Virus record (IMG/VR): IMGVR_UViG_3300010259_000001
Coordinates: 1-64,000 of that record
Origin: a virus
Direction: 5' to 3' (one strand)
DNA length: 64,000 nucleotides
Shown piece by piece: positions 17,801-64,000 of this stretch. Made by a program: the position numbers and the translations under genes. The notes below the pieces were generated by a model. It was not told the origin of the DNA. It worked only from the letters and a program-made list of their open reading frames with translations, and did not search any database. Each line of letters begins with the position of its first letter. Position 1 is the stretch's first letter.

Positions 17801-20800
17801 CTTTACGAAATCTTCATATAGTTTTGGCTCAACCCATGACGAGCCAAGTGTAAACTCAATGAGGTGTGCAGGAATGTTCATCGGGATAACACGCTCCAGT
17901 GCTTTGATGTTTGCATCATAACGTCCGTCCGTGTTGTTCTCTTGGGCTTGGCGCAACTTCTCACGAACATTGCCACTGAGATATTCATACGACACTTCCA
18001 TTTCGGTTGTGGTCGGGTTCTCGAAGCCAAGTCCACTTTCAATAATCTGCTGGCGCACATCGCTGTCGCTCATGTTCAACTGCTCGGCGATATATGGAAC
18101 ATCGACACGTCCGTTAAGATAGATGCTGGCAATGATGCCGTCTTTAATGGTTGTTGGCTTCGGCTCGCTCTCGGTCTCCACGACACGACGGCTGAAAATG
18201 TCAGTCTTGCCGTAGGTGACAATACGCTTTCCGCTCTTGTCGCCTGTCTCACTCACACTTTCCAATGCGGCAATACTTGGGTAATCCATATCGCTGCGCA
18301 GGAAAGAAATGGAAGTGTTCTTGTTCAGATGTCCGTAGGTCTTGACAAAACTGTCGTATGCCTTGTTCAACTTGGCAAGACGCTGTTGCAAACCGCTATC
18401 GTCGCTGTGGGTAGTCTGATACTCCAACACGTCGGCAAGAGCATCCTTGATAGCCTTGTAAGCGTTGAAACACTCTGCCTTGGTGTGTCCCTTAACCTTG
18501 TTGGCATTGACGTTGATAGGCACGGCTTTTCCTCTCTGTGCAAGACACAGATTGCCGTCGCTGTCAAGTAACATGCTGCCCTCCTTGACATCTTCACCCA
18601 AATCTTCATACACTACCTGCTGGCTCTCGCGCTCCTCGGCTTTGTCCCAGTCCATATCCTTGAACTGCTGCGCCCACTCTGACAGACGCTGCTCTTGGTT
18701 GATGCTCGGACTTGGATAGAGTGCCTTGCTGGTTGCACGATAGGTGTCACCTTTCTCAAATGCGAAAGCCATTTCACCTGCCATGTCTTCGGGATGTTCC
18801 ACAAAGTGCTTGTTCACGTCAAGCGCAAGGTCTTTGACTATTACCTCACTGCTGCCACGCTTTGTTTCACCTGTGTTGTACTTCACGGTGCGGATGGGCA
18901 GTGTGCCGCTCACGTCTATGGCGTTTGCACTCTTGCGACCATTCACGCGCTTGCGAATGACAATAATATCAGAGGTTGCGCCAGTACCACCGAATGTTTG
19001 GTTGTGCATACGGAAAGCACCGACAACATCTGCGCCTCCCTCATTTACCAACCATGTACGGAGTTTTGCGGAGTTCGGGCTGTCAAGTGTTCCGCTTGAC
19101 GTGATAAAGATGCCAACGCCTCCCTCTTTGAGTTTGCGCACATTCTTGGCAATACAGAAGTCGTGAATGTCATGGAACTTACGTGACAAATCCTTGTCGC
19201 CAGTCTCGTCCATCACACGCAAGCCTGTAACGAAAGGTACATTGGTGATAGCCAAATCAACACTTCCATTAGGAACAAATGTTTTCTCAAATCCTTTTAC
19301 CTCTACATTGGCATCGGGATAGAGCAGTGAGAGAATGTTTCCTGTGGTCTCGTCAATCTCTACTGCATGAATATTGCTTCGTTCGCTCATGTCAGTAGGC
19401 ATCAGACCGATAATGCTGCCGATACCGGCACTTCCCTCCAGTACGTTTCCACCACGGAAACCCATTGCTCGCGCAACATCCCACATGGCATCAATAACAG
19501 GTGCAGGAGTATAGTACGCACTGTTACGGCTCATGTTGGCTGCTTCGTATGCTTCGGGTGAAAGCAACTCACGCAGACGTGCGTTGATTGGGTTGGATGG
19601 CTGGTAGTCGTCGCGCAAACGTGGGTTGTAGCCACTGTCACCGCTACTTACTTTCTCTTTGAAAGCAGCACCCAAACCACCCCAACCGCTGAACTTGCGA
19701 AGCACAGACATATCTTCGGGAGTGGCTGGCTCGCCGCTCTCGATAAGACGCTGCATCGTCTCGATAGCCTTTATGTTGGCTTCGATACGTGCACTGGTGC
19801 CTTTAGGCGCGTAATCAGTTCCGCGCTCGGCATGATTGTTGTGGGTATTCTTTCGCTCGCTCTCTGCAAGGGGTGCAGGTTCGGGCTTGGCTGGCTTTAC
19901 ATTTTGCTTGCCATCAGATGGTTCAGATACTCGCGAGCCTCCTGCGGTGTCAGACTTAGTATCGTTTCCACTACGTCTAACCACTCCTCCTGCGTCAGGT
20001 CGCTCATCTTCATTTTGTTTGCTCTCTCCCAACGGCTCATTCTGTTCGCGTTGGTGTCCTCTTTCTCGCTCGGTAGTGCTGGTGCGAGGTTGTACGTGTA
20101 CTTCTTGCTCATTGCTCGTTGGTTTTAAGTCTTCACTGAACAAACCACTGAACAAATCGGGGATGGTTTGCTCCTGCAAAGATTCTGATTTTTTCTTAGA
20201 TTTACGCTCCTTTGACGGCTTTTCTTGCTGATTACCTGCATTTTCTGCTGCAATACGTTGTGCCATTGCAACGTAGTCCTCTGCCGGTAACCATTCTTGG
20301 CACACACTTCTGATGCCTTGCAGCATCTGTGGCATGGTAACATCAACAGGGAAAAAGTTGTTGGCGCGTAGATAGTCACGTCCACCATTCGGAAGATTTC
20401 TTTCGGGACGGAACATGATACCTTTCAGCACAAGGTTGTCACGATTGTTTTCATAATCGGGTTCCAGCATGAAGTCGATATACAACTCCACGCCCTTGTC
20501 GCGGTTCAACATGAAGCGCATGGTAACATCACCACCTGCAGGTGCGATGTTTGCCGTCACACTCTTTTGTTTCTTGCCCTTGGTATCATACACAACAGGG
20601 TCGCTGATGCCGAGTTCCTTTGTCAGTGTCTTAAACAACTCTGTGACATTCTTCACGGCTTTCTTCTCAGCATTGCGCATGTAGCCGTATGCCTCGTTGA
20701 AGTCGCTCTCCACTGGCTCTGCCTCATAGTAACCAAGCAATGCCAGTTGGTCGTTCACCTTGTCGATAGCATCGTCAATGTTCTTTGCAAGGTCGTTTAC

Positions 20801-30091: not shown

Positions 30092-30592
30092 TTATCCAAG
30101 TCCCATGCCACTGGCAAAGCCGTTAGCGGCTCCACCGATAGCGTTACTTACCATGCCGAAGCCATCAACCTTACCTGCTTCGAGTTCGCGCAACTTCTCG
30201 TCAAGTTGGTGCTGTCTCTCGCGGTACTGACCCTCAATCTGGTCTTTGCGCTGTGCGCCAGCAACTGCAATCTGACTGGTAGCGTCTGACAACGCTTTTG
30301 CATTAGCCTCTTTCGCTGCTGCTGTACTCTCCTCGGTGCCACCCATCACGGCTTGCACTCCTGCCGACTGCTGGTTACGTCGCCTTATCATGTCTGCTGT
30401 CTGCGTGAGAATGGCTTGCGCGTCGGCTCGCTGGGTTGCGTCCTCATTATACCTGCGGTCGTACCAGTCTTGGTTCTCGCGCTTCTGCTCGTTAATCATG
30501 TTACTCATTTTCTTCAGCATCTTGTTCTTGCTGATGCCTCCGAAGATGCCACCAAGCGCACCTGCTGCGCCTCCTATAATTCCGCCTAACAT
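30092..30592 (-). CDS. Hypothetical protein with Gly-zipper termini; first gene of the minus-strand operon
   Basis: 166 aa with an ATG start. N-terminus MLGGIIGGAAGALGGIFGG, C-terminus AIGGAANGFASGMGLG, helical charged middle. Confidence 0.5.
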   Translation of the reverse strand: MLGGIIGGAAGALGGIFGGISKNKMLKKMSNMINEQKRENQDWYDRRYNEDATQRADAQAILTQTADMIRRRNQQSAGVQAVMGGTEESTAAAKEANAKALSDATSQIAVAGAQRKDQIEGQYRERQHQLDEKLRELEAGKVDGFGMVSNAIGGAANGFASGMGLG

Positions 30593-43332: not shown

Positions 43333-43345
43333 AAATCAAAAGACA

Positions 43346-43924
43346 ATGAAAAAGTACATTGGAACAAAGGCCATCATGGCTAAGCCGATGGCAAAGAGTG
43401 AAGCAGAGAAAGTGTTGAACCGCAGCCTTGCTGACGCAAAGGGTGGCGAAGACGGCTACCTCGTCGAGTACCCGGACGGCTACAAGTCATGGTCGCCCAA
43501 AGAGACGTTTGAGGAGGCTTACAAGGTTGCTGACACATACCTCGACCGTATGCGTATTGAGTATGCAGATGTCAAGGATCGCGTTTTGAAACTGCACACG
43601 TTCCTGATGTCTGAGGAGTTCAGAGCATTGCCCAAAGAGAAACAGGCAAAGTTGCAAGCCCAGTGTGGCGCAATGTCCGCCTATGTCGAAATTCTCGGTC
43701 AGCGTATCGACGAGGCTAAGATGGAACAGAAACAACAGGAGGCTGCACAAGCTGCTGCCGCTGCACAGGAGATGCGTGAAAGCCTTGTCGGTCTCACTAT
43801 CGTAGAGGCTGGTAAGTGTGACTTCTGCCCAAGCGAGACAACCAACTGCAAGAAACTTATCCTTGCCGACGGCTCGCACATCTGCGTGAAAGACATGACT
43901 AAACAACCCTCTAAAGCACAGTAA
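43346..43924 (+). CDS. Hypothetical protein with an N4-gp49/Sf6-gp66-like N-terminal domain
   Basis: ATG at 43346. Contains ...DGYLVEYPDGYKSWSPKETFEEAYK.... The C-terminal part has an Ala/Gln-rich helix and a Cys cluster. Confidence 0.45.
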   Translation: MKKYIGTKAIMAKPMAKSEAEKVLNRSLADAKGGEDGYLVEYPDGYKSWSPKETFEEAYKVADTYLDRMRIEYADVKDRVLKLHTFLMSEEFRALPKEKQAKLQAQCGAMSAYVEILGQRIDEAKMEQKQQEAAQAAAAAQEMRESLVGLTIVEAGKCDFCPSETTNCKKLILADGSHICVKDMTKQPSKAQ

Positions 43925-43926
43925 CC

Positions 43927-44547
43927 ATGAGTAAACAAATAACTATCCCTGTTCCCGACGGCAAACGTGCCGAGTGGATTAACGGTGTCCTCACTCTTGT
44001 TGACGAGCAGAAAGTAGATAACCGTCCTGTAACAGAACGTATCAAGACGTTTGATGATGCCTGCAATGCGCTGGGCGATGAGCATCCGCTTGTCACACAA
44101 TACCGTCTTACTGCTGCCGCATACAAAGGCGACCCCATGACGGAAGATTTCATTGCCTACCTCAAACTCCGTATCATCGTTGCTGCTCTCAATGAGGGAT
44201 GGGAACCGAAGTTCACAGAAGATGAGTACAGATACTTCCCTTGGTTCTACTTCTATACCAAAGAGGAGTGCGACAAGTTAGACGACAAGGAAAAAGGGCG
44301 TTGTGTTCTTCGCTCCGGCGACAGCGCGAACTCGGACTACGGCTTCGTGGGCTGCGGCGCGATTAACGGTGCTTCGTTCTCGAGTGCCAGCGGCGGCTCG
44401 CGGCTTGCCTTCAGAACTCGTGAACTCGCAGCCTACGCAGGTAGGCAATTCATCGAGGAATGGGCTGACTTTATGTTTAAGCCTCGCACTGGCGAGGAGT
44501 TAAACGGAAAGTCAGAAGCAGCGAAAACCACCATCGACTTCAAATGA
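43927..44547 (+). CDS. DGR target protein 2 (small, no signal peptide; carries VR2)
   Basis: 206 aa. ...GRCVLRSGDSANSDYGFVGCGAINGASFSSASGGSRLAFR... is in frame with the TR AAY codons. About 45 aa follow the VR. Confidence 0.85.
   Translation: MSKQITIPVPDGKRAEWINGVLTLVDEQKVDNRPVTERIKTFDDACNALGDEHPLVTQYRLTAAAYKGDPMTEDFIAYLKLRIIVAALNEGWEPKFTEDEYRYFPWFYFYTKEECDKLDDKEKGRCVLRSGDSANSDYGFVGCGAINGASFSSASGGSRLAFRTRELAAYAGRQFIEEWADFMFKPRTGEELNGKSEAAKTTIDFK
44296..44409 (+). repeat. DGR variable repeat VR2
   Basis: 114-nt alignment to TR (minus strand of 57414-57527). I count 19 mismatches, all at TR adenines. The 3' flank GCCTTCAGA (44407-44415) is shared with VR1 but not with TR. Confidence 0.9.
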
Positions 44548-44741
44548 ATAACGGACGCTTACAATTCTTCAACCTTGTAAAGGCTATGCGTGAGGCGCAA
44601 AGGGAATACTTCTCTACGCGCTCTCACGAAGCCTTACAAAAGGCTCGCTCACTTGAACGTAGTGTAGATGCCTACATCAAGCGTGGCGACGATTATCTTA
44701 AAAAACAAAATCAAGAACCAACTTTATTCGATAATGACTGA
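44544..44741 (+). CDS. Hypothetical small protein
   Basis: 65 aa. ATGA overlap with the upstream stop. Confidence 0.45.
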   Translation: MNNGRLQFFNLVKAMREAQREYFSTRSHEALQKARSLERSVDAYIKRGDDYLKKQNQEPTLFDND

Positions 44742-46416
44742 TAATATTAAACTACTATATATAGACCTGTTCTGTGGGGCTGGCGGCACCAGTACAGGTG
44801 TTGAAAAGGCAACCTTTCACGGTAGTAAGTGCGCCAAGGTCATTGCCTGTGTCAATCACGATGCCAACGCTATAGCATCCCACGCTGCCAACCATCCCGA
44901 TGCACTCCACTTCACGGAGGACATTCGTACACTTGAACTATCTCCACTCGTTGCGCACACAGAACGCTTGCGCCTACTTCATCCCGATGCTTACCTGGTA
45001 CTATGGGCCAGCCTTGAATGTACCAACTTCAGCAAAGCAAAGGGAGGGATGCCACGCGATGCAGACAGCCGTACACTTGCAGAACATTTGTTCCGATACA
45101 TCGAGGCTCTGCGTCCCGACTACATTCAGATTGAAAACGTGGAGGAATTTATGTCATGGGGCGACATGGACGAGAACGGACACCCTATCAGCAAGGACAA
45201 AGGAAAGTCGTATGTTCGTTGGGTGAACAACGTCTGCAAATATGGCTATTACTTCGACTGGCGCATACTCAATGCTGCGGACTATGGTGCATACACCAGT
45301 CGTAAGCGTTTTTTCGGGCAGTTTGCCCTGCATGGTCTGCCTATCGCTTTCCCCAAAGCCACACATGCCAAATGCCCTGCAAAGTATGAGCATAGCCTGT
45401 TCCCTGCCGACAACATGCAGCCTTGGAAGCCTGTGCGCGAAGTCCTCGACCTCAACGACGAGGGAGAAAGCATCTTCGGGCGCAAGAAACCGCTTGTCGA
45501 GAAAACACTGGAGCGTATCTATGCTGGGCTGATAAAGTTTGTTGCTGGCGGCAAGGAGGCTTTCATCGTGAAGTGGAACAGCGTCAACGGAAAGACAGGC
45601 AAGTATGTACCGCCAAGCATCGACGAACCTTGCCCTACTGTTGCGACACAGAACCGCCTCGGCGTGGCAAAGGTACAGTTCCTAAGCAAACAATTCGGTG
45701 GCGACCCAGCAGGAAAGAACATCAGCGTAGAAGAACCTGCTGGCACAATCACTTGCCGTGACCACCACGCATTTGTATCGGCTCACAATGGTAATGGCTA
45801 CAACACTTCTGTAGATGCTCCTGCGCCTACGCTTACGTGTAAAGACCGCCTCGGACTGGTAACAAGCAACTTTCTTGAAATGCAATACGGCAACGGCACA
45901 CCTGCAAGCACTGACGAACCGGCACCAGCCGTAACCACCAATCCAAAGCATAATCTTGTCAGCGTGAAGCCGTGGATAATGAACACCAACTATGGCAATG
46001 TAGGAAGTTCCATCGACGAGCCATCACAGACGATAACGGCAAACAGGAAGTGGCACTATCTTATGAACCCACAATTTGCCAACAAAGGAGGCAGCATCGA
46101 CAAGCCTTGCTTCACGCTCATTGCCCGGATGGATAAGATGCCGCCGTATCTTGTCAGCACAAAGGAGGGGCTTACCATTGAGGTTTACGAGACTGACAGT
46201 CCTGCAACCATACAAATCAAGGAGTTTATGGCTCTCTATTGTATTGCAGACATTCGTATGCGTATGCTTCGTATTCCCGAACTAAAACGTATCATGGGCT
46301 TTCCCGAAGATTACACGCTCATTGGCACACAGGCAGAGCAAAAGAAGTTCATCGGCAATGCCGTTGAGGTGAACATGGCACGTGTCCTTTGCGAAGCTCT
46401 TTGCAAAAAACTATAA
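44734..46416 (+). CDS. dcm: DNA (cytosine-5)-methyltransferase
   Basis: Motif I LYIDLFCGAGGTSTG, catalytic-Cys motif ASLECTNFSKAKGG, motif VI IENVEEF, plus RKRFF and GNAVEV (motif X). ATG at 44734. Confidence 0.9.
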   Translation: MTDNIKLLYIDLFCGAGGTSTGVEKATFHGSKCAKVIACVNHDANAIASHAANHPDALHFTEDIRTLELSPLVAHTERLRLLHPDAYLVLWASLECTNFSKAKGGMPRDADSRTLAEHLFRYIEALRPDYIQIENVEEFMSWGDMDENGHPISKDKGKSYVRWVNNVCKYGYYFDWRILNAADYGAYTSRKRFFGQFALHGLPIAFPKATHAKCPAKYEHSLFPADNMQPWKPVREVLDLNDEGESIFGRKKPLVEKTLERIYAGLIKFVAGGKEAFIVKWNSVNGKTGKYVPPSIDEPCPTVATQNRLGVAKVQFLSKQFGGDPAGKNISVEEPAGTITCRDHHAFVSAHNGNGYNTSVDAPAPTLTCKDRLGLVTSNFLEMQYGNGTPASTDEPAPAVTTNPKHNLVSVKPWIMNTNYGNVGSSIDEPSQTITANRKWHYLMNPQFANKGGSIDKPCFTLIARMDKMPPYLVSTKEGLTIEVYETDSPATIQIKEFMALYCIADIRMRMLRIPELKRIMGFPEDYTLIGTQAEQKKFIGNAVEVNMARVLCEALCKKL

Positions 46417-46420
46417 GAAT

Positions 46421-47386
46421 ATGGAAATAGAAATCAACACCACCTATAACATGGATTGCCTAAAAGGGCTTCGGAATATGGCGGACAATTCTGTGGACTG
46501 CTGCATCACATCACCGCCTTATTTCGGACTCCGTGACTACTGTGTTGATGGGCAGATAGGTTTGGAGAAGTCGCCAAATGAGTATGTTTCAAAAATGGTT
46601 AAGGTTTTTCGTGAAGTGTATCGTGTACTGAAACCGACAGGCACATTGTGGCTGAATATCGGCGACTGCTATGCTGGAGGCAACAAAGGCGCGGCCGCTT
46701 ATCCCGATAACGCCAAGAAATATAAGCAGGGAACTAACAGGGGAACTGTTGGTAACAGGACTGCTTACAGGTATCAGACAACCTGTAAGGATAAAGATTT
46801 AATCGGTATTCCTTGGATGCTCGCTTTCGCTCTGCGTGATAAGGTTGGTTTCTATCTACGTCAAGATATAATATGGCACAAGCCAAACCCGATGCCGGAA
46901 AGTGTTCTTGACCGTTGCACAAAGGCACACGAATACATCTTCCTGTTCTCAAAGTCCAGTCGCTATTACTTCAACCATGAGGAAATGCAGGAGCAAGCGG
47001 TATGTGCTGCCGTTGAACGACAAGAGAACCCACCTCGCTATGGTGGCAATAAATACACGGCTACGCCCGACAAGTTCAACCGCACAAAAAGCGGTAATGC
47101 CTACGCCTATACAGGCAAGCGAAACAAACGTGACGTGTGGACTGTCAGCACTAAGCCCGAAAAGAGTGCGCACTTTGCAGCCTATCCGAAAGAACTGATT
47201 GAGCCTTGCGTCCTCGCTGGCTGTCCAAATGGCGGTGTCGTTCTTGACCCTTTTATGGGAACAGGCACTACGGCCATGGTAGCAAGAATGTACGGACGCA
47301 ACTTTATCGGCTTTGAACTAAATGCCGATTACATGAGTATCATCAACAAGAAAATTCAAGTAACACCAAATATGTTTTATCTATGA
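46421..47386 (+). CDS. DNA N4-cytosine or N6-adenine methyltransferase (beta class)
   Basis: Catalytic motif DCCITSPPYFGLRDY near the N-terminus and SAM motif VLDPFMGTGTT near the C-terminus. SPPY favours an N4-cytosine enzyme but is not decisive. Confidence 0.85.
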   Translation: MEIEINTTYNMDCLKGLRNMADNSVDCCITSPPYFGLRDYCVDGQIGLEKSPNEYVSKMVKVFREVYRVLKPTGTLWLNIGDCYAGGNKGAAAYPDNAKKYKQGTNRGTVGNRTAYRYQTTCKDKDLIGIPWMLAFALRDKVGFYLRQDIIWHKPNPMPESVLDRCTKAHEYIFLFSKSSRYYFNHEEMQEQAVCAAVERQENPPRYGGNKYTATPDKFNRTKSGNAYAYTGKRNKRDVWTVSTKPEKSAHFAAYPKELIEPCVLAGCPNGGVVLDPFMGTGTTAMVARMYGRNFIGFELNADYMSIINKKIQVTPNMFYL

Positions 47387-54991: not shown

Positions 54992-55039
54992 CGCTCATAA
55001 CAACAGTTCGACCTGTTATCTTTTGAGTTGGTCGCCTAT

Positions 55040-55081
55040 ACACAAAGAAAGAGCCACAGGCTTATGGCTACCTGCGGCTCT
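55040..55081 (-). terminator. Rho-independent terminator after the 98-aa gene
   Basis: 11-bp stem agagccacagg (55050-55060) with cctgcggctct (55071-55081), one mismatch. T-rich tract downstream on the minus strand. Confidence 0.55.
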
Positions 55082-55100
55082 CAAAACCATTTATGTAGTA

Positions 55101-55397
55101 TCAACTATGATGTGGGGTGTCGTAGTTAAAGTAGTATCTTCCGAATAGGCGCGTGCTGATATAGTAAAGCAAGGCTATCAGCGTGAACCATGTGAGCGCA
55201 TAGGGGTTACGGCTCTGACGAGTTGATATTTTCTGCATATTGAGAAACAGGTTCGTGTCTGCTTCCTTGCGCTGTTCCTCACCACCTCCCTTGTCATACT
55301 CGTTGTCATGCAGCACGCACGCTGCATAATACTTCTTGGCGTATGGGGGCTTGATATATTTCAGCAGACCTTTGGCACAACCGCAACCGTTACTCAT
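55101..55397 (-). CDS. Small membrane-anchored protein with a phospholipase-A2-like HDxxY...D motif
   Basis: 98 aa. GCGCAKG (Ca-loop-like), ACVLHDNEYDKGGGEEQRKEAD (HD-x2-Y then D), and a C-terminal TM segment LTWFTLIALLYYISTRLFG. Confidence 0.4.
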   Translation of the reverse strand: MSNGCGCAKGLLKYIKPPYAKKYYAACVLHDNEYDKGGGEEQRKEADTNLFLNMQKISTRQSRNPYALTWFTLIALLYYISTRLFGRYYFNYDTPHHS

Positions 55398-55887
55398 AGT
55401 TCGACATATCTAAACTGTCCTTTTCTGCCCAGCCCTCATTGAGACACTGGTTAATGTAGGCGACTGCAGACGTGTAGAAGTCCGTGAAGTCCTCCATGTT
55501 TTCAAAGGTGTGGTACACGGCTTTGCCCTCTGCGTCTTCACCAAGTTTGAACTTAATAGGCAACATGGCACCACCCATCTGCATATTGAGGTCGAACGCT
55601 GCCTTGAAGTTGTTTTGGTTCTCAGCACTCAAATACACACGGATGCCTTTCCATGCAAAGCCGTTCAGTATCTTTTCGTCTGTATTGGCGTTGATGGTGT
55701 CAATGATAAGGTATTTAACCTCGCTGACGGTGGGCTTATAGTCCAGCGTCTGACGGTAGTTATATCCTGTGCCTCCGTCCATGCCGAAGCCATAGAATAC
55801 TTCCCAGCGTTTACGACCTATCTGCTGTATGCCGTCTCTGCGTTCTGATGCTCCATAAATCTTTTCCATGCCGCAAAGATACGACAT
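55390..55887 (-). CDS. Hypothetical protein downstream of the RT
   Basis: 165 aa. An alternative ATG lies at 55869. Not helical-bundle-like, so not an obvious Avd. Confidence 0.5.
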   Translation of the reverse strand: MSYLCGMEKIYGASERRDGIQQIGRKRWEVFYGFGMDGGTGYNYRQTLDYKPTVSEVKYLIIDTINANTDEKILNGFAWKGIRVYLSAENQNNFKAAFDLNMQMGGAMLPIKFKLGEDAEGKAVYHTFENMEDFTDFYTSAVAYINQCLNEGWAEKDSLDMSNYE

Positions 55888-55919
55888 AAGACGGCAAATA
55901 AGATGTTATCTTTTGTGTA

Positions 55920-57263
55920 TCATGAGAACTTATACTTTACCTTGCCTCCGTCAAACACTTCACTGACAATCGTGGTTTCAAATGGGAAACCGTCTTCGAT
56001 GTCGCTGATTTGGTCGAGGATATTCTTCATTTCCTCAGATGCTGTAAAGAACTTGCCCCAGTCGCCTGTCTGCTTGTCACGGAAACTTACCACATAGCGG
56101 TCTTCACCCTGCGATGTGTTGATGCCAGTCTCGTAGTCATGCACTTCAATAGTTTTGTTCACGATTGCGCCCAAGCGCATTGTCTTACCGGGAAAGCGTT
56201 TCTTTCCGTCGGCAGGGGTGTAACTAACACCCATTTCGCTAAACTTTTTCATTTTCTGATTTGTCAATTTATAAAACAAGTGTTTACAATCAGCATGGCA
56301 AGCCATGCCTTTGAATGAGCCAATAATCTCTTGCCGACGTTTCCGCGACTTCACCTTTGCCAGTTTCCTTGCTGCTTTCTGCTTGATACGCTTGCGCAAT
56401 AATGAATGGGTGCCATAATGCACATAGCCAAGAAAGTCCAGTCCAACGTCCAGCGGTCGCACCGCCTCCGATGGCTTAACCTCCAAACCGAGACGTGCCA
56501 CTGCTGCTATATGAATGTTGCGCAACTCCCACAATTCTTTTTTCGTGCTGGCAAGCATTACGGTATCATCGCAATACCTGTAATACAAATAATGTGTCTC
56601 ACCGCCCTTTTCATAGTGTTTAACGTATTTCAGCATTTCATGGTCAACCTCATTCAGATAGAGGTTGGCGAAACACTGCGAGGAACGAAGACCCTTTGAC
56701 AAGCCTTGTGGCATGAGCGTAATGAAACTGTCAAGGATGGGTAGCAGTATCGGGTCTGAAACATACTTCCTTATTATCTGCATCATCCGCAGTTGGTCGA
56801 TGCTGTCATAATAATGGTGTATGTCGTTCTGATAGTAGTATTGTGATTGTTCGGGAGCATTGGTAAGGTCTTCCTCTACGACGTGGTGCAGCCAGTGCAT
56901 ACCACGTCCCTTGATGCTTGCTGCCGTGTTCTTGATGAGCGTAGGGTATGTGTACTTCTCTATCACTACCATGATGGCATGGATGCCAACACGCTTCACT
57001 ACCGTTGGGGCTTGCACATCGCGCTCTTTGTAGCCCTCAGTTACATGCAGGTCGCGAACATCGCTACGCACAATACGAAAAGAACCTGCACTGATTTCTC
57101 TGCGTAGGCTCTCTATTATCGTCAGACGTTTAGGTCTGTACATTTCCCGTTGTCTTGGATGTTCAAGGTGACTGATAACGTAGTCGAAACTTTCACCCAT
57201 GTTCTCCTCGCTGACAATTTCGGGAATTAGATTGTCGAGAGGAAATCTAATGTCATAGTCCAT
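55920..57263 (-). CDS. DGR reverse transcriptase
   Basis: 447 aa. YxDD box YYRYCDDTVMLAS. DGR-type motif ...PQGLSKGLRSSQCFANLYLNEVD (the SQ signature). Lies 150 nt downstream of TR. Confidence 0.92.
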   Translation of the reverse strand: MDYDIRFPLDNLIPEIVSEENMGESFDYVISHLEHPRQREMYRPKRLTIIESLRREISAGSFRIVRSDVRDLHVTEGYKERDVQAPTVVKRVGIHAIMVVIEKYTYPTLIKNTAASIKGRGMHWLHHVVEEDLTNAPEQSQYYYQNDIHHYYDSIDQLRMMQIIRKYVSDPILLPILDSFITLMPQGLSKGLRSSQCFANLYLNEVDHEMLKYVKHYEKGGETHYLYYRYCDDTVMLASTKKELWELRNIHIAAVARLGLEVKPSEAVRPLDVGLDFLGYVHYGTHSLLRKRIKQKAARKLAKVKSRKRRQEIIGSFKGMACHADCKHLFYKLTNQKMKKFSEMGVSYTPADGKKRFPGKTMRLGAIVNKTIEVHDYETGINTSQGEDRYVVSFRDKQTGDWGKFFTASEEMKNILDQISDIEDGFPFETTIVSEVFDGGKVKYKFS

Positions 57264-57413
57264 GCCTTCAGGACACTTAGTTATGTTTCGGCTTTCTACA
57301 TTATGTAGGGTTGCCGAGGCTCAAACCCTTCGCCCTTGCGGTCAGTGTACACGACACTGGTGTATAGGAACGATATTAAACAGTCTGCCTCCGAAAGACA
57401 GATGTATCTTGCT

Positions 57414-57528
57414 GGTAAGCCGCGAGCCGTTGTTGGTATTCGAGTTCGAAGCATCGTTATTCGCGTTGCAGTTCACGAAGCCGTTGTTCGAGTTCGTGTT
57501 GTTGCCGGAGCGAAGAACACAACGCCCA
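57414..57528 (-). repeat. DGR template repeat (TR)
   Basis: Minus-strand reading GRCVLRSGNNTNSNNGFVNCNANNDASNSNTNNGSRL, with 13 AAY codons and 30 adenines by my count. Not part of a gene. Confidence 0.9.
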
Positions 57529-57560
57529 CGAGGGTTATCCACCTGCTTAAAAAGCAAGTG

Positions 57561-57568
57561 CAAAGGTA
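57561..57568 (-). promoter_or_regulatory. Bacteroidota-type -7 box (TACCTTTG) for the TR-RT transcript
   Basis: Exact TAnnTTTG match on the minus strand, about 33 nt upstream of the TR 5' boundary and downstream of the target-gene terminator. Confidence 0.4.
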
Positions 57569-57618
57569 CGAATATTTGTCATACTTACGCACTTTGCACC
57601 CCCACTATTAGCATTTTT

Positions 57619-57647
57619 TCAAAAAAAATCGAGCCGCTTACGCGGCT
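57619..57647 (-). terminator. Rho-independent terminator of the DGR target gene
   Basis: Stem agccgc (57632-57637) with gcggct (57642-57647), followed on the minus strand by an 8-T run (57621-57628). Confidence 0.65.
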
Positions 57648-57654
57648 TTAGCGG

Positions 57655-57686
57655 AGAGTGAGCAGCCTTTTCAAGGCTCTCACTCT
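57655..57686 (-). promoter_or_regulatory. 14-bp hairpin downstream of VR1 (candidate DGR homing hairpin/cruciform)
   Basis: agagtgag-c-agcctt / ttc / aaggct-ctcactct. Located about 40 nt 3' of the VR1 IMH-like flank and 17 nt after the stop codon. Confidence 0.45.
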
Positions 57687-57702
57687 GACGCTTTGCCGCT
57701 TG

Positions 57703-60700
57703 CTACTCAACGAACTCGATTTCGCCTCTGAAGGCAAGCCGCGAGCCGCAGTTGGTATTCGAGTTCGAAGCATCGTTATACGCGACGCAGTACACGAAGC
57801 CGACGTACGAGTTCGTGACGCCGCCGGAGCGAAGAACACAACGCCCAGTTGAAGCGGAGTAGTATTGACCATCACAATAATAGGTGTTGTAATTGGAATT
57901 AGACACCGTCTTACTCGGCACAACATCACAGAACCGTCCATGTCGGACACGACAAACTTCTTGGTCGGAATTGTTTACGCCTTGCACGGCTCGTTCCGTA
58001 CCATCTGCCATTCTGATGCGCCAGATATGGTCAACAACGCTGCCGCTTGGCACTTGGCTCTTGTTCTTCTTGTAGGCATCGAAACTTGCAACATTCACAG
58101 CCACATTGTCCATCCACTCCCATGCACAACCCCACCAGTCTTCAAGTCCTAATGTGCGAGGTCTGCCGGTAGTTGTCTCATAGAAAGGCGAACGGTTTGC
58201 GCCATCCGTCGTACCTGTATTGACCACACCAACGCCGACACCATTCACGGCTTGCGAGTTTCTGCGTCCGTGAATAGCCATCCACAGGTTAGCGATGTCC
58301 TTGTGCATTTCGTAGTCCACAAGTTGATAACCCTTGCCACGGCACTGCACGATGTTTTGGAAGTCCTTGCAAGTGAAGTTCAGACTGGTGCCAGCCTGTG
58401 GCAGGTTATTCGTCACGTTGCCGTTCTCGTCGTACTTCCAAATGTTGCTGGTGCTTGAAGTGCCTGTGCCTCGCTTTGGTATCGCACCGCTGATGGAACG
58501 AAGACGGTTGAGGTTATCAACACTTCCTTTGTACACGCCAATTAGTTCAAACTGGTGTTCCACCCAGTCGGGTTCAATGGCTTCAACGGCTGCACTATCT
58601 ACAGCGATGCACTCTAAATCGTCGTAGCCCTGTGGTGTGCAGAACACGAACTTGGCTGCACCTGCCGGCACATCGACAAAGACATATTCACCTTGTACGA
58701 AATCGCTGTTGGCGTGAGTGATGTAGGTGTAAACGGTGCTAATCACCTTGTCATTCTTGTCAAGGAACACTGCACCGATAAGGTTGCTGTTGATACCAGG
58801 CCACCTTACCTGCTTCATGTTCTCTACATCCATGCTGTAAACATTGTTGGCACTGCTGTCTGTCAAATTGTCAGCATCGAACACATCGCCAACATTGAAG
58901 TTGCCGACATATACACTTGAAAGACTTTTCACTAACAGGTTGCTCAACGTGTCTCGGTTTACGTTACGAGCGGTAGAACTTGGAGTATTTGTTTCTGTTG
59001 AGAAAGCAATATACTTCTTATTGTTCACATGGTCGTTGATACCCTTGTACCAGTAGTGAGGCAAGCCAAGGAACAAGTCGTAACCAGTACCATTAGTGTC
59101 TGTAATGTCAAGGTCAAGACCGTTGGCAAGGTGGTACAGGTCACTGTCACTTACCTGCTCCAACTGCATCTTATTGGTACTTTCATTGAAAGTTCCTTTA
59201 TATACATGCAACTGGCTTTGCAGTTTGGTGATGTGTCCGCTTGGGATATAACCGTCGTCAACGCCGTCAGTGGTATTGTTGTCGAGGTTTCGGATATTGC
59301 CGTCAAACTCCATTGCATCGTCAAACTCTATCAACGTATATTGCGCATTGTATAGCGTGAGGTTCGGGAAGTATGCTACAAGATTGGCAAAGATGGCATC
59401 CTCAACGAGGTTGCTCATAATCCAACTGCCGTTCATGCCGTCGCAAACATTTGTCTGCTCACTTCCTATTCCGCGAGTGCCAAGGCTCTGCATGGTTTCA
59501 AGGGTTCTGCTGTTGCCTGTCATATCGTAACTGTCTATCTGCACTTCTGCAAGACGTGCGCCAGCATTGATAACATCGGCAAGCAACTGTTGCGCGTCTA
59601 TGCTCGGGCAACCGCTTAACTGTATGCGAGTGACGTTCGCCAATCCATCAAATGATACACCGCCATTGGGATAGCCAAGACTGGGCAGGTTCACGAATGA
59701 CAGTTCCGTCATGCTTGATGGCAAAGTCAGCGTCTGCAAGGGTGACGATTGCGCAGAACTGAAAGAGCGAAGCGAGCTGCCGCTTGCCTGTACTTTCTTC
59801 AAGCGTGGGCAACCACTGGCATTCAGCGTCAGCACCTTGGTATTTCTGATGTCTATCTCTTCTAAGAATGGCATCTGTCCGAGGCTCAACGCTGACAGTA
59901 TGTCGTCGGTGTACGATGGCGTATAACTCTCTCCACCGATGATGAGTTTCCGCAATAGCGTACAGTCGGCTATAACCCAGTTGCTGTTTTTCGGTGTACA
60001 GCCGCTTAAATCAAGTTCGCTCAGTTTATCAGCACCGAAGATATAGATAAGTTTACCACCGACACCTGCAGCAGCCTCAGTAAAGGTGTGGCTCTCACCT
60101 GCGCGCAGATAGCATGAATACTTTGCGCTGCTGGTGCTGTCAACGCCCATGCCAAAGTAACCGTCCTGTGCTGCCGTAATCTTCACGGTGATGGCTCCCA
60201 TCACACGCGCTTGGAAGAAATGCTTGAACAGGTCGCCTGTCTGATAGTAGCCGTCGCGGTAGGCGAAACGCTTGCGCTGGAATGCTGGCAGACTTTCAAG
60301 ACGCAAACCGTGCAGTGCCGGATAGTGGTTGTCTGCTGCCGTCGCGGTCTCGATATACTTGCGCTGGCCGTCGAAGCTGCTCACTACCTTTGCCCACTTC
60401 AAGATGCGGTTTGTCATCCAGTAACGGTAGCTGCCTGCTGCACTGAATATCTCCAGTCCTGCGCCTGTCTTGGCAGAACGCATGGCGGCGGCGGTATTAT
60501 GCAAGGTCAGTTGTGTGCCGTTATCATCAATCCAAACGCCCTCGCCTCTTTCAAACAGGGCAAACGACTGGCGGAACATCACACCGTCCCAACCTTGGTA
60601 CAGGTGGCTGTTCGCTCCGTCCATATCCCAAGGGATAGTCAGATAACAGTCGTTGTCGGCCTCGTCAACACTATCACCATCATACCAGTGGTTGAAGTAG

Positions 60701-63700
60701 TAGCGCATGTTGCCGTCAGTCTCTTTATAGACTGCTATCATCATGTTCTTGGCTCGCTGGTCAACGGTAGCCTTATAATCCGATGCCACAATATAGTGGT
60801 TCGTGCTGTAAGGGTTGAAGTAGTGGTGCATCTCATGCTGCCACTTCAACAGACGGTTGGTCTTGGTTCCTGCTACGGTATTGCCGTCAAGGGTGATGGT
60901 GAGCGATGCACCGTCACCGTTGAAAATCTTTTCGCTGCCGTCGGGGTTCAGTGCGGCATTCTCTTCGTGGTCGTCCGTGAGGTTCTGATTACACTGCTGA
61001 CAGAATAACAGTTCACGGAACAACTGATAAGGTACCTTTCTACCCTGTGCGTACAGGTCGTTCAAATCATCATCGTCGGGGTAACGGCTCTCGTAGTATG
61101 TTGACCAGATAGGCACGTCGCCATCATCGGTGTGCAGCGTTTCAAGCATATCATCGACGCTGTTCACACCCTGCTGCCAACAGAACTCTTGATACTGGCG
61201 ATACTCGTAACACTCAACAGGGTTAAGCACTCTGCCTACAATCACCCACTTGCCAGTGCTGCTCTCGTAGGTCATGCTGCCTGTGGTGTCGCGCCATACG
61301 CCACCAGTGTACTTGTAGTACTTGCCGTCGGTGCTGCGATAGACAGTTGCCCAGTCGTAATCGCTGACATCATCTGCAGCAATCTCTGCGCCTGTTTTGT
61401 CAACCTCAACGAACTCGGCTACGGCATCGGTCTCTGTCATGGCTCCTGTGCCGTCGTTCTCTATGAAGCGCGTCTCGGGGCCACAGAACTCACTAATCAT
61501 ATAGAGCATTCCGGGGATAAGCGATGCTGAACCAGCAAGCACCGTTGCCTTGTAAGCGTCAATGTTGGTGCCTCGCGGTGTAACAATCTCCTTGAAATCG
61601 CCATAGTTCACACAGCCCTTGTTGTAGCCAGGCACATCTTCGAAGCCGAAGAAATGGGGGTTGCCCTTGTCGGCATTGAAGTTAGCCTTGCTGTGGAAGT
61701 AGGCGTTTTCGGGAAGCGTAGCGGCCTCGGAACCTTTCTCCTGTCCGATGCGGTAGTCCGTGCGGAACAATGCACAGGTAACACCATCAATGGAGGTGTG
61801 CAGCTCCTCGCTGCTATCAGTGTTGAATATCTGTGCAGGGGTCATGTAGTTTCTACCCAAGGCAATCTGAACATCATTCATCTGCTCCATCAGTGCACAG
61901 TTATTCGCACCGGCACTGTCCGAATAGTCCACCTTGATAGTGATGGTGCTGATAGGGGTGCTGCCGTCCTTGATGCGTATCTTCTTCTTTGCAGCGAGTT
62001 TCACTGCCTCGTCGTACTTGGCAAGAATGGTTTCGTCGCCATTATACATCTTGCTGACCTCTTCGCGCGTATGCAGCATGACAATGCGCTTGGCTTTCTT
62101 TGCCTTGCCTTTCTTGTTCTTGATTGCGTAGGCAAGTGTAGATGTACCTTGGTTCGTAACGGGGATAGCCTCAATCATACAGTCTGCCCAAGGACGGTCG
62201 GGGAAGTACAGATACCAGTCCATAAGCACCTGTGTCTTCTTGTCCTTGATATTCTCGATATAGTCGGGATAGTATATCTCGCTATCCGTCACGGCTGCAC
62301 CGTCCTTGCTCAGATTGGCATCAGAAGTGCGTGTCTCAACACAAACCATCACACCACGGTCAATCAACTTCTGCATATCGGGGCGAGGTTTCGTCACACC
62401 CTCTGCCGTAATGTCTGCCATCACTTGGTTCTGCTCATACTCGGTAAGCATAGCCTGCGTGTCGGTAAGGTTCACGATGTAGTTGTTGAATGCCTGTATA
62501 AAGTCATAGTAGGTGTTCCAGCGCACAATCTCATATAGATAAAGGTCGGCATCACTGCCGTCAAAGTGGATGGTGTCGCCAAATACAGGGAATGCGCTGC
62601 TGGTGTCTATTGGCACACAAGCAGCCATATCACCGTTTTGGAAGACTTTGCAAAGCATCACTCCACTGTAAGGAGCGCGTGCTTGCGGCTCTATCACGAT
62701 GTCAAATCGGTACACCACATCGTCAAGATATGAGGTCGCGGCTGTTGTATGTACGTTGGCGAGTGCCTCATCGCTATCACCGTTTGTAGTGACGATGAAC
62801 TTCTCACCAGTAAGCACGAAGCCGAGACGCTCACCAAGACACTTGATGATATGAGCGTTTCGCTTAGCGATGTTCTTCACCTTGAACGTCATTGAAAGAG
62901 CAAGTCCATTGGTAGGGATAGAGGTGCTGGCAAAAGGCTGGTCGGTACACTCTGCAGTGACGTTCTCTGCCACACGTAGCGACATGCGACCACCGCTCTG
63001 CTCGGTACCGAACGTATCAAGCACAAAGCCGTTGGTGGAGTAGTTCGAGCCGGTAACAACAATCTCTTTCTCCGTGCCGTCGGTGGCTTGGGTCTTGATG
63101 GTCTTGTCGGTGTCGGTGTTGCTCCTACCTGCGAGGCTTATCTTATACAAGGCTCCCTCGGTCTCGGCAATATCCAGCAGCGAACCGTTGACAAGCACCT
63201 CGCGCGTCTCTGCCAAAGAGGCAACGCCGCAGGTGGCATCGAAAGTAAGAGTGTCGCCCTGACTGTAACCAACGACGCGCTTCTCTATCGTGTAGTACCT
63301 GTTGCGGTACATAGAACTCTCACTAAGGGTCTCTGTCGTGTCTGTGGTCTCGTTGGTCATGGTAACCTCTACGACGCATGGGTTCTTGCTACGTTGGTAG
63401 CAGGCAAGGTCTATCTTCAGAGTCTCAAAGAGTTTCACTTCGCCGTCGCTGTCGTCGCTCCATCGTGCCACAACAATAGGCTTGTCGTAGTCGGCAACTT
63501 CCTCACGCTGCTCTATCACCATCACTGCGGTATGCAGCACGTTACCTCGCGTGCCGCTGGCTACGTCGGTACCCTGTATGCGGATGGGGTATGCACCATG
63601 TCCTAACCCTGTCGGGTCGATGCTCACATTGTGGGGATAGGTGTCGTTGACAACAACGTCCTGTAGCGTTTCCCAGTCGCCGTTCTTGTATATCTCCACA

Positions 63701-64000
63701 ACGGTTCTGATACCTCTGTCACTGGCATTGTTCGGGAAGCGATACATCGGGATAGATGTTTTCTGTCCTCCCACCTGTAACGAGGTCTCACGTGTATAGT
63801 TGAGGGTCTGCACACTCTCGCACGTTACATCAACGGCAATAATGCTGATGTTCTTTGTGGCGGTGTTGCCTCCATCGTCAGTGATAACAGCTTGCAGGGG
63901 CAATTCTCCTGCGTTCTGACACAGGCTACTCAAATCGAACTCAAAGGAGTAGTCGGTAAGTGTGGCACTCGATGCCTTTCTCGGATTGAAGAAAGCAACG
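57703..64000 (-). CDS. DGR target protein 1: giant receptor-binding / tail-fibre-like protein (5' end outside the window)
   Basis: The track start at 63933 is a TTG and the frame stays open to 64000, so the protein exceeds 2,098 aa. LRR-like block at about 59520-60050 (...LSELDLSGC...LRKLIIGG...LEEIDIRNTKVLTLNASGCPRLKKVQASG...). The C-terminal lectin-fold-like region (...LEDWWGCAWEWMDN...) ends in VR1. Confidence 0.85.
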   Translation of the reverse strand, partial: VAFFNPRKASSATLTDYSFEFDLSSLCQNAGELPLQAVITDDGGNTATKNISIIAVDVTCESVQTLNYTRETSLQVGGQKTSIPMYRFPNNASDRGIRTVVEIYKNGDWETLQDVVVNDTYPHNVSIDPTGLGHGAYPIRIQGTDVASGTRGNVLHTAVMVIEQREEVADYDKPIVVARWSDDSDGEVKLFETLKIDLACYQRSKNPCVVEVTMTNETTDTTETLSESSMYRNRYYTIEKRVVGYSQGDTLTFDATCGVASLAETREVLVNGSLLDIAETEGALYKISLAGRSNTDTDKTIKTQATDGTEKEIVVTGSNYSTNGFVLDTFGTEQSGGRMSLRVAENVTAECTDQPFASTSIPTNGLALSMTFKVKNIAKRNAHIIKCLGERLGFVLTGEKFIVTTNGDSDEALANVHTTAATSYLDDVVYRFDIVIEPQARAPYSGVMLCKVFQNGDMAACVPIDTSSAFPVFGDTIHFDGSDADLYLYEIVRWNTYYDFIQAFNNYIVNLTDTQAMLTEYEQNQVMADITAEGVTKPRPDMQKLIDRGVMVCVETRTSDANLSKDGAAVTDSEIYYPDYIENIKDKKTQVLMDWYLYFPDRPWADCMIEAIPVTNQGTSTLAYAIKNKKGKAKKAKRIVMLHTREEVSKMYNGDETILAKYDEAVKLAAKKKIRIKDGSTPISTITIKVDYSDSAGANNCALMEQMNDVQIALGRNYMTPAQIFNTDSSEELHTSIDGVTCALFRTDYRIGQEKGSEAATLPENAYFHSKANFNADKGNPHFFGFEDVPGYNKGCVNYGDFKEIVTPRGTNIDAYKATVLAGSASLIPGMLYMISEFCGPETRFIENDGTGAMTETDAVAEFVEVDKTGAEIAADDVSDYDWATVYRSTDGKYYKYTGGVWRDTTGSMTYESSTGKWVIVGRVLNPVECYEYRQYQEFCWQQGVNSVDDMLETLHTDDGDVPIWSTYYESRYPDDDDLNDLYAQGRKVPYQLFRELLFCQQCNQNLTDDHEENAALNPDGSEKIFNGDGASLTITLDGNTVAGTKTNRLLKWQHEMHHYFNPYSTNHYIVASDYKATVDQRAKNMMIAVYKETDGNMRYYFNHWYDGDSVDEADNDCYLTIPWDMDGANSHLYQGWDGVMFRQSFALFERGEGVWIDDNGTQLTLHNTAAAMRSAKTGAGLEIFSAAGSYRYWMTNRILKWAKVVSSFDGQRKYIETATAADNHYPALHGLRLESLPAFQRKRFAYRDGYYQTGDLFKHFFQARVMGAITVKITAAQDGYFGMGVDSTSSAKYSCYLRAGESHTFTEAAAGVGGKLIYIFGADKLSELDLSGCTPKNSNWVIADCTLLRKLIIGGESYTPSYTDDILSALSLGQMPFLEEIDIRNTKVLTLNASGCPRLKKVQASGSSLRSFSSAQSSPLQTLTLPSSMTELSFVNLPSLGYPNGGVSFDGLANVTRIQLSGCPSIDAQQLLADVINAGARLAEVQIDSYDMTGNSRTLETMQSLGTRGIGSEQTNVCDGMNGSWIMSNLVEDAIFANLVAYFPNLTLYNAQYTLIEFDDAMEFDGNIRNLDNNTTDGVDDGYIPSGHITKLQSQLHVYKGTFNESTNKMQLEQVSDSDLYHLANGLDLDITDTNGTGYDLFLGLPHYWYKGINDHVNNKKYIAFSTETNTPSSTARNVNRDTLSNLLVKSLSSVYVGNFNVGDVFDADNLTDSSANNVYSMDVENMKQVRWPGINSNLIGAVFLDKNDKVISTVYTYITHANSDFVQGEYVFVDVPAGAAKFVFCTPQGYDDLECIAVDSAAVEAIEPDWVEHQFELIGVYKGSVDNLNRLRSISGAIPKRGTGTSSTSNIWKYDENGNVTNNLPQAGTSLNFTCKDFQNIVQCRGKGYQLVDYEMHKDIANLWMAIHGRRNSQAVNGVGVGVVNTGTTDGANRSPFYETTTGRPRTLGLEDWWGCAWEWMDNVAVNVASFDAYKKNKSQVPSGSVVDHIWRIRMADGTERAVQGVNNSDQEVCRVRHGRFCDVVPSKTVSNSNYNTYYCDGQYYSASTGRCVLRSGGVTNSYVGFVYCVAYNDASNSNTNCGSRLAFRGEIEFVE
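57733..57847 (-). repeat. DGR variable repeat VR1
   Basis: Offset of +319 nt from TR. I count 14 mismatches, all at TR adenines (T on the plus strand). Encodes the last 45 or so residues of the target protein. Confidence 0.9.

Follow-up and report, generated by a model that had tools for sequence, protein, structure and literature searches.

A diversity-generating retroelement with one template and two targets in a gut Bacteroidales phage

The DNA examined here, referred to as the window, comprises the first 64,000 nucleotides (nt) of the IMG/VR virus record IMGVR_UViG_3300010259_000001. It carries a diversity-generating retroelement (DGR) in which a reverse transcriptase (RT) gene lies beside one template repeat (TR), and two variable repeats (VR1 and VR2) lie in two target genes. 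DGRs are the only means known by which bacteria and their viruses naturally hypermutate chosen proteins; catalogues list tens of thousands of them, with gut Bacteroidales phages among their main carriers. An earlier note, made from the letters of the sequence, had interpreted the RT gene, TR and VR1 as a complete DGR. Every element that it named held under test, yet it had omitted VR2 (44296–44409, plus strand), the structured RNA RT-3 in the spacer between TR and the RT gene, and the lack of an Avd accessory protein. The core features are, with protein lengths in amino acids (aa):

55920–57263, minus strand: gene for the DGR reverse transcriptase, 447 aa, recognized by Pfam, PHROG, motif and PDB matches
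57414–57528, minus strand: TR, 115 nt, including 30 adenines
57733–57847, minus strand: VR1, with 14 adenine-only differences from TR
57703–64000, minus strand: target gene 1, cut by the window edge; the frame is open from the stop at 57703 and covers 2,098 of 2,803 codons
44296–44409, plus strand: VR2, 114 nt; opposite in strand to TR and ~13 kb away from it; all 19 mismatches to TR are at TR adenines
43927–44547, plus strand: target gene 2, 206 aa, non-structural, with VR2 at residues 124–161

A repeat finder returned a single 115-nt direct-repeat family in the window, namely TR and VR1 (start-to-start distance of 319 nt; 88% identity), with the same coordinates and offset as previously proposed. 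Base by base, the two copies differ at 14 positions, each of which (14 of 14) is a T in the plus-strand TR and hence an A on the coding minus strand, in agreement with the count made in the earlier note; given 30 A in 115 nt, the probability that all 14 mismatches fall on A by chance is ~6.8e-9. The homology between TR and VR1 stops sharply at both ends. TR itself sits in non-coding DNA beside the RT gene; its in-frame translation, GRCVLRSGNNTNSNNGFVNCNANNDASNSNTNNGSRLT, includes the string that had been quoted as evidence of a template rich in AAY codons, of which 13 were counted along with four other codons that contain A. Thus ≤17 codons per target are open to re-randomization, and A-to-N changes could generate ~5e17 protein variants without a stop codon ever being reachable.

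Scanning the window with the template, with any base allowed at its A positions, revealed the third copy, VR2, on the plus strand. Across TR, VR1 and VR2, all 33 mismatches fall on TR adenines (26% of TR positions), so that one template beside a DGR-type RT is accompanied by two VRs differing from it only at template adenines. Moreover, the two VRs share a 3′ flank that is specific to VRs and common to both targets: each terminates in ...GGCTCGCGGCTTGCC and is directly followed by TTCAGA (57727–57732 for VR1), whereas TR terminates in ...GGCTTACC followed by AGCAAGA. The distinction between VR and TR at the 3′ end is kept in relatives. By its sequence, the TTCAGA end of the VRs thus resembles an initiation of mutagenic homing (IMH) site, and the AGCAAGA end of TR resembles an IMH*.

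The 447-aa open reading frame (ORF) carries RYCDDT and GLRSSQCFAN, that is, the YCDD box and the DGR-specific SQ motif that had been reported in it, and exceeds the Pfam RVT_1 threshold (32.7 bits versus a cut-off of 29.6). It matches phrog_1423 ‘Reverse transcriptase' at 1e-90 and, over aa 338–446, phrog_19665. Among solved structures the top match is the 328-aa DGR RT of phage BPP-1 (8ub7–8ube; E 1.3e-16, aa 11–333), with weaker matches to a group II intron RT (6.5e-5) and to retron RTs (~5e-4). At the protein level it is 54% identical to the RT of phage BS-TP4 and 45.8% identical to that of Hankyphage, and its tblastn matches take in Hankyphage and records named Bordetella. In an NCBIfam scan, a collection that holds no DGR-specific RT model, all RT matches (group II intron, Drt and retron models) were far under their cut-offs. 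Judged by its sequence, the ORF is a DGR-type RT.

These data bear on whether a retroelement is needed at all, since the three copies could represent a duplicated lectin-motif module that diverged by point mutation or gene conversion next to an unrelated RT (retron, group II intron or defence). The sub-threshold NCBIfam matches to group II intron, Drt and retron models would fit such a history, as would the likeness of the two target proteins being limited to 40–46 aa. Yet a module diverging in this manner would have to place 33 of 33 mismatches on the A of one copy (~7e-9 for VR1 alone), and that A-rich reference copy is found in non-coding DNA beside an RT that is far closer to the BPP-1 RT (bRT) than to group II or retron RTs; across contigs, in addition, TR is near-invariant and the VRs are variable. 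Because of the adenine-only asymmetry, this non-retroelement history is effectively refuted, and we assign it a negligible probability.

To what extent the element has been active was addressed by comparing assembled contigs from different samples. At least 11 such contigs encode an RT identical to that of the window. Three of the contigs compared over 13 kb are:

L003: 100% identical to the window over 13 kb; 0 differences, 0 inside VR1
L004: 99.4% identical to the window over 13 kb; 79 differences, 20 inside VR1
L005: 99.6% identical to the window over 13 kb; 54 differences, 17 inside VR1

For L004 and L005, divergence in VR1 is therefore ~15–17%, against a background of ~0.3–0.45% (~40 times background), and the VR1 differences lie at TR-adenine positions with the exception of one at the repeat boundary. 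As genomes that are otherwise 99.4–99.6% identical differ this much in VR1, the turnover of VR1 must be more recent than the divergence of the strains. Ten further contigs span the region from the VR2 gene to the RT cassette, most of them holding TR plus one or both VRs. Eight of the ten retain a full-length RT of 447 aa, the exceptions being L065 (truncated RT) and L067 (no RT), and in these eight each VR differs from its own TR at 13–19 A sites and 0–2 others. Furthermore, the TR of L064 carries two non-adenine variants, T90C and G105T, both of which are present in both VRs of L064, as expected from a flow of information from TR to VR. Hence both VRs turn over, and non-adenine markers of TR are copied into both. 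The earlier note had held that variation at non-adenine positions, or disruption of the RT in most members of the population, would overturn its interpretation; in the other metagenomes, variation between near-identical genomes is concentrated in VR1 at template adenines and the RT is intact in most members.

The TR copies from L004–L010, L021, L022 and L059–L065, when compared with that of the window, are not perfectly invariant. Over 18 TR copies, 11 distinct substitution events were found, and seven of the 11 are at adenines (26% expected; binomial P ~0.01). This mild adenine excess, which is one of the modest new points of the analysis, could arise from occasional mis-homing of mutagenized complementary DNA (cDNA) into TR, or from VR-to-TR gene conversion.

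Two of the contigs depart from the common organization. In L065 (ERZ920193 scaffold_25, 17688–19836), the RT is truncated to 375 aa, TR shows four A-to-N changes, all four being shared with its own VR2, and the 5′ part of VR1 no longer aligns to the template, features suggestive of an element that is in decay or has been rearranged. L067 (ERZ28612969 scaffold_1282; 6039–6623 and 17354–19645) is without the block of target gene 1, TR, RT, DUF4376 gene and 98-aa ORF, in place of which it has a 763-aa DUF4886 protein; it keeps a 194-aa VR2-type gene with a VR-like segment. Unless an RT lies elsewhere on the contig, L067 is a natural ‘DGR-minus' comparison genome.

We consider it very probable that the locus is a functional and recently active DGR with two targets. 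Several observations weigh against this reading. First, the evidence of activity comes entirely from assembled contigs compared between samples, and the VRs do show the 0–2 non-adenine differences from TR noted above, although most of these track TR polymorphisms. Second, the 8-nt motif TAnnTTTG that is proposed below as promoter of the TR-RT transcript is not enriched in the window (37 found, 32 expected). Third, the protein encoded by target gene 2 gave a poor AlphaFold (AF2) model (predicted local distance difference test (pLDDT) of 61.6, from a shallow alignment of 48 sequences that are 86–93% identical), and profile–profile comparison (hhalign) of target 2 with the lectin domain of target 1 aligned only the 40–46 aa of the VR segment. 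Finally, Pfam and NCBIfam searches of ~30 of the ~43 window ORFs detected no Avd (PF05635) or HRDC domain.

BPP-1 requires Avd. A sizeable minority of DGRs are without a recognizable Avd, and its absence therefore does not exclude membership of the DGRs. In the window, the neighbours of the RT gene likewise gave no Avd or HRDC match in Pfam or NCBIfam, and the interval between VR1 and TR contains no ORF; nor is an Avd gene annotated in the Hankyphage or BS-TP4 record. Residues 338–447 of the RT (55920–56252, minus strand) make up an additional domain at its C-terminus, ~110 aa long, which corresponds to a separate PHROG family, phrog_19665; the domain has no Pfam match and is absent from BPP-1 bRT. 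Speculatively, it might stand in for Avd. That an extended RT is found where Avd is apparently absent is another modest new point, and this DGR lineage appears to work without a recognizable Avd, with an RT that carries the extra domain.

A missing Avd might instead signal a fossil, that is, a DGR that was active in an ancestor and is now inert, the VR differences being inherited lineage markers. Decaying relatives do exist, as L065 (375-aa RT, four A-to-N changes in TR) and L067 (RT module absent, VR2-type gene kept) illustrate. A fossil would, however, be difficult to reconcile with an RT that is intact and identical at the amino-acid level over at least 11 contigs, or with the 15–17% of VR1 positions at which 99.4–99.6% identical genomes differ, which require recent turnover. 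A-biased VR/TR mismatches are found moreover in Hankyphage, BS-TP4 and 24 further related loci, and the former two are relatives that also have no annotated Avd gene. An inert remnant is thus quite improbable.

The non-coding DNA around TR harbours a series of further candidate elements:

57257–57375, minus strand: RT-3 structured RNA (RF03068); cmscan score 55.4 bits (gathering score 40.5; E 1.4e-11)
57384–57402, minus strand: stem-loop between TR and RT-3, immediately 3′ of TR; eight pairs in a terminator-like scan, with the same stem in the RNA fold
57561–57568, minus strand: TACCTTTG, a Bacteroidetes-type −7 motif (TAnnTTTG), ~33 nt upstream of TR
57622–57687, minus strand: two hairpins downstream of the stop of target gene 1; DNA fold z = −5.0

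RT-3 is the sole Rfam match across the whole 64-kb window, and it falls exactly in the spacer between TR and the start codon of the RT gene. It occurs at the same place in Hankyphage (146.6 bits) and in BS-TP4 (74.5 bits). The minimum-free-energy fold of the TR-RT spacer alone was not significant (z = −1.1); support for RT-3 between TR and RT thus comes from the covariance-model match and not from this fold. Within the DGR RNA, RT-3 is presumably the portion that the RT binds and that serves in priming. Weinberg et al. 2017, in their description of the motifs RT-1 to RT-19, placed RT-10 in the TR-RT spacer of BPP-1 and speculated that other RT motifs serve other DGRs (PMC5737381). The matches above allow the role of TR-RT spacer RNA in the Hankyphage-type DGR lineage to be assigned to the Rfam family RT-3, which is a modest new point as well.

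The arrangement of these elements was followed in an alignment (A4) of the VR1-to-RT interval of ten divergent relatives, in which the order is the VR 3′ end GCCTTCAG, a hairpin, a T-run hairpin, TAnnTTTG, TR, a stem-loop and RT-3. By eye, relatives have a stem-loop of different sequence apparently at the same position 3′ of TR, and TAnnTTTG occupies the aligned position in most of the ten. A sigma-70 promoter scan found nothing, as expected for Bacteroidetes, and TACCTTTG is the putative start of the TR-RT transcript, as judged from its motif and position. Upstream of it, the first of the two hairpins (~57654–57687) shows compensatory changes in relatives (GTGAG/CTCAC to GGGAG/CTCCC; alignment A4), and the second consists of GCCGCGTAAGCGGC plus a T8 run (57632–57647 and tail) and was also found by the terminator scan; both are probably terminators of target gene 1. 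In the window, the DNA between target gene 1 and TR amounts to only 174 nt of hairpins.

The features can be arranged into a mechanism, much of it by homology to BPP-1. Transcription would start at the Bacteroidetes-type promoter ~30 nt upstream of TR and, if the locus works as in BPP-1, run through TR, the stem-loop, RT-3 and the RT gene as one RNA; the RT would bind this transcript and prime within the spacer RNA, and a cDNA of TR would be made with its adenines copied unfaithfully, as by the BPP-1 bRT. The cDNA would then replace VR1 at the 3′ end of the giant target gene and VR2 13 kb away on the other strand. We infer that it is targeted there via the 3′ GGCTCGCGGCTTGCC-TTCAGA, which is common to both VRs and missing from TR; this common sequence can be seen directly, as can the outcome.

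The product of target gene 1 is 2,803 aa in complete contigs, and in the window its frame remains open to the edge; VR1 does lie at the extreme C-terminus of a protein of >2,098 aa as was initially suggested. VR1 codes for residues ~2051–2088 of the fragment, with the stop located 10 codons past the repeat. The ORF listing gives this gene as 57703–63933 (2,076 aa, TTG start), a start that is an artefact of the window cut. Along its whole length the protein matches phrog_14959 (2042.8 bits), and there is a further match to phrog_5302 ‘tail protein' on aa 1819–2090. Pfam found nothing at E ≤ 0.01 on the entire protein, and only sub-threshold hints of leucine-rich repeats (LRRs) when it was split into four pieces. 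A profile built from 14 homologues of aa 1241–1520, by comparison, matched the LRR protein Internalin-J (E 2e-7) with five repeated stretches, and its weaker matches are mostly LRR proteins. Single-sequence phmmer searches of the PDB with either VR-bearing domain yielded no match better than chance. For the last 349 aa of target 1, the AF2 model has a pLDDT of 82.4, and Foldseek ranked TaqVP first (E 2.9e-8), followed by BPP-1 Mtd (E 9e-4 to 5e-3), Treponema TvpA and then classical C-type lectins. A C-type-lectin fold of the C-terminal domain that carries VR1 is thus supported by the model, and the LRR-plus-lectin architecture that the earlier note had read from the sequence is borne out by the Internalin-J profile match and by the model's matches to TaqVP, Mtd and C-type lectins.

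Target gene 1 closes the structural module and is followed by the DGR, the gene for a DUF4376 protein, a holin-like ORF and an amidase gene. The protein is most naturally read as a tail-fibre or receptor-binding-type protein, and variation in VR1 most likely retunes receptor binding by the virion. The gene next to the RT is:

55390–55887, minus strand: DUF4376 protein, 165 aa, immediately downstream of the RT gene; Pfam DUF4376 30.7 bits

A DUF4376 gene also follows the RT in Hankyphage-type phages and in BS-TP4. Part of the literature on DUF4376 concerns phage receptor-binding proteins and tail-fibre chaperones, on which basis a role in the folding or assembly of tail fibres, as chaperone or assembly factor, is more probable for this protein than one as a DGR accessory.

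The second target is of a different kind. Its protein matches phrog_11581 at 2.8e-51, and its homologues fall into 6,378 clusters at 90% identity and 1,538 at 50%, mostly of 180–210 aa; the family is thus widespread. In an alignment of 48 homologues, 14 of the 15 columns with ≥1.5 bits of entropy fall in residues 132–156, and the mean entropy is 1.08 bits inside the VR but 0.13 outside it, where a conserved core is found (ERIKTF.DA...LG..HP; AYLKLRII.AALNEGW.P.F; RYYPWF). In 10 relatives, retrieved by exact-sequence look-up of the 65-aa ORF downstream of VR2, VR2 is hypervariable at TR-adenine positions. As to its fold, Pfam gave nothing at E ≤ 0.01, Foldseek on the poor AF2 model gave nothing meaningful, and a profile of the diverse alignment A5 of target 2 found no lectin in the PDB. 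C-type lectin domains were reported in both targets of Quimbyvirus by Benler et al. (PMC8008677). By analogy, a compact lectin fold would be the default expectation for target 2. The listed ORF upstream of VR2 has 272 aa, and its true start is apparently internal. The immediate neighbours of target gene 2 are:

43343–43924, plus strand: Sequestin-family (crAss001_48) gene, directly upstream of target gene 2; Pfam PF21825, 8.8e-17
~44734–47386, plus strand: genes for C5 and N6/N4 DNA methylases, directly downstream of target gene 2; Pfam DNA_methylase, 3.3e-29

By gene calls, target gene 2 has the same neighbours in relatives. The subject of bioRxiv 10.1101/2025.07.12.664507 is viral proteins that sequester or cleave immune signalling nucleotides, and on this basis the Sequestin may be such an immune-nucleotide sponge. 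If so, the neighbourhood of target 2 would be one of counter-defence, as the literature noted for homologues. With the Sequestin gene on one side and the methylase genes on the other, the second DGR target seems to lie within a small island of counter-defence genes. In the mechanism outlined above, VR2 would accordingly diversify a non-structural protein among counter-defence genes, which presumably binds a variable host factor. A counter-defence role for the distal DGR target was suggested in Benler 2021 (PMC8008677) and in Nature 2025 (PMC12629997). More specifically, the VR2 protein could be an intracellular counter-defence factor diversified by the DGR, that is, a small binder re-randomized against variable host immune proteins or signals, a proposal that we regard as tentative and somewhat doubtful; its scaffold may not be recognizable as a C-type lectin outside the VR segment of 40 aa. 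If true, this would be a phage-side adaptive anti-immunity module.

Alternatively, the tail-fibre gene could be the sole selected target, with VR2 a passive by-product, namely a captured VR plus recognition sequence that is mutagenized collaterally. The VR2 protein indeed has no recognizable fold or function, it resembles target 1 in the VR segment only, and BS-TP4, the closest annotated relative by portal and RT, is without a homologue of the VR2 gene. A mere bystander would not, however, be expected to form a large family that is conserved outside the VR (1,538 clusters at 50% identity; numerous alignment columns hardly vary), nor to keep its frame open in all variants examined. In addition, the same kind of distal target is found in the otherwise different LoVEphage lineage, and the gene persists in L067 even without the RT module. 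On balance a collateral origin of VR2 variation is unlikely.

The element can be placed among known systems. Across 37 related Bacteroidales genome loci, 26, including Hankyphage and BS-TP4, have a VR-TR-RT arrangement with A-biased mismatches; they come from Prevotella, Muribaculaceae, Bacteroides, Parabacteroides and others. In Hankyphage (Bacteroides phage p00, BK010646), the order is the same as in the window: a giant target, a VR (~116 nt), TR, RT-3, an RT of ~440 aa (45.8% identical, as above) and DUF4376, the target being 25–27% identical over its C-terminal half or more. For this DGR, Benler et al. 2018 reported 14 mismatches at adenines and a target that contains a C-type lectin domain (PMC6199706). 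The window thus has both the Hankyphage-type gene order and the homology of RT and target. The two phages differ in that Hankyphage, with a genome of 43 kb and a single annotated VR, is a transposable phage of the Mu-like kind, whereas the window phage is ~66 kb, has an integrase and a different structural module, and carries a second, distal VR.

The closest annotated genomes to the window phage are BS-TP4 (PQ571277) and BKO1-TP3 (PQ571269), whose portal is 67–69%, RT 53–54% and target 35% (full length) identical to those of the window. BS-TP4 shares the downstream gene order (DUF4376, small ORFs, amidase) and has a TR/VR pair with nine A-only mismatches as well as the RT-3 RNA; unlike the window, it has a RelE/XRE toxin–antitoxin pair between the target gene and TR (L001 11081–11741). 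Neither the BS-TP4 nor the BKO1-TP3 record holds a homologue of the VR2 protein of the window.

Two VRs served by a single TR are known from Quimbyvirus and LoVEphage, where, as in the window, one VR lies at the C-terminus of a structural-module protein. In Quimbyvirus, one VR belongs to the structural module, whereas the distal one is encoded on the other strand, within a non-structural protein whose neighbours are methyltransferases (Benler et al. 2021; PMC8008677). For four species of Bacteroidota prophages, a second VR that is likewise distal and close to DNA methyltransferase genes was reported in Nature 2025 (PMC12629997). In LoVEphage OY731433, TR (L069 20748–20865) matches a nearby VR and a distal opposite-strand VR; in the latter, all 19 mismatches are at template A, and it is contained in a 194-aa coding sequence that is a tblastn homologue of the window VR2 protein, the LoVEphage proteins being 37–41% identical to it. 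The window element is thus of the Quimbyvirus/LoVEphage two-target type, with a distal opposite-strand VR beside DNA methyltransferases that is served by the same TR. The likeness does not extend throughout: the Quimbyvirus RT is split over three overlapping frames, whereas that of the window is a single intact 447-aa ORF (36% identical), and the structural genes of LoVEphage are unrelated to those of the window at this sensitivity, as no LoVEphage record matched the portal.

With BPP-1 (Mtd/Avd/TR/bRT), the window shares adenine-specific TR-to-VR transfer, a C-terminal VR in a receptor-binding protein of C-type-lectin fold and a homologous RT. BPP-1 also has an IMH, of which the VR-specific 3′ sequence is the window analogue, and a structured TR-RT spacer RNA, the family being RT-10 in BPP-1 and RT-3 in the window. 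The window differs from BPP-1 in that no Avd was found, the RT has an extra C-terminal domain of ~110 aa, and there are two targets instead of one, target 1 being ~7 times longer than Mtd. Thus the window locus displays the features of a DGR, namely RT motifs, an adenine-only TR/VR pair, a VR in a C-type-lectin domain (target 1) and an IMH-like end. The cassette type (Hankyphage) and the tail-fibre target are already published, as is a second, distal target close to methylases (in Quimbyvirus/LoVEphage and further prophages of Bacteroidota), and the locus leaves existing knowledge of DGRs unchanged. It is a clean and complete example, in which a single template and an intact RT serve two targets, the spacer RNA is present and turnover is evident from population data, and is suited as a reference case or engineering chassis.

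The source is a temperate gut phage of Bacteroidales, probably of Prevotellaceae, with a genome of ~66 kb. Complete contigs are ~66 kb, and some copies are found inside contigs of 100–240 kb, presumably as prophages. The window codes for a terminase, portal, integrase, RecT-like protein, helicase and methylases, and the two genomes that share its portal at 67–69% identity (BS-TP4 and BKO1-TP3) are temperate Bacteroides phages. Near relatives of the RT sit in Bacteroidales and Prevotella metagenome-assembled genomes, and one homologue of the VR2 protein is labelled Prevotellaceae. A megablast of 55000–64000 against GenBank phages gave no match; relatives surfaced only in protein-level searches. 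A crAss-like phage had been suspected from the crAss001_48 Pfam match and from a 6,696-aa ORF, and was rejected because of the integrase, RecT, the portal that is 67% identical to BS-TP4 and the nature of the giant ORF. The latter (8813–28903, minus strand) lies directly downstream of the portal gene as one ORF with the Pfam domains InPase, ddrB-like ParB, LPD3 (large polyvalent protein-associated domain 3) and SNF2/Helicase_C, and belongs with the ‘polyvalent proteins' that phages and conjugative elements are known to encode. At 30092–30592, the window also holds a gene for a T7 gp14-like internal virion protein.

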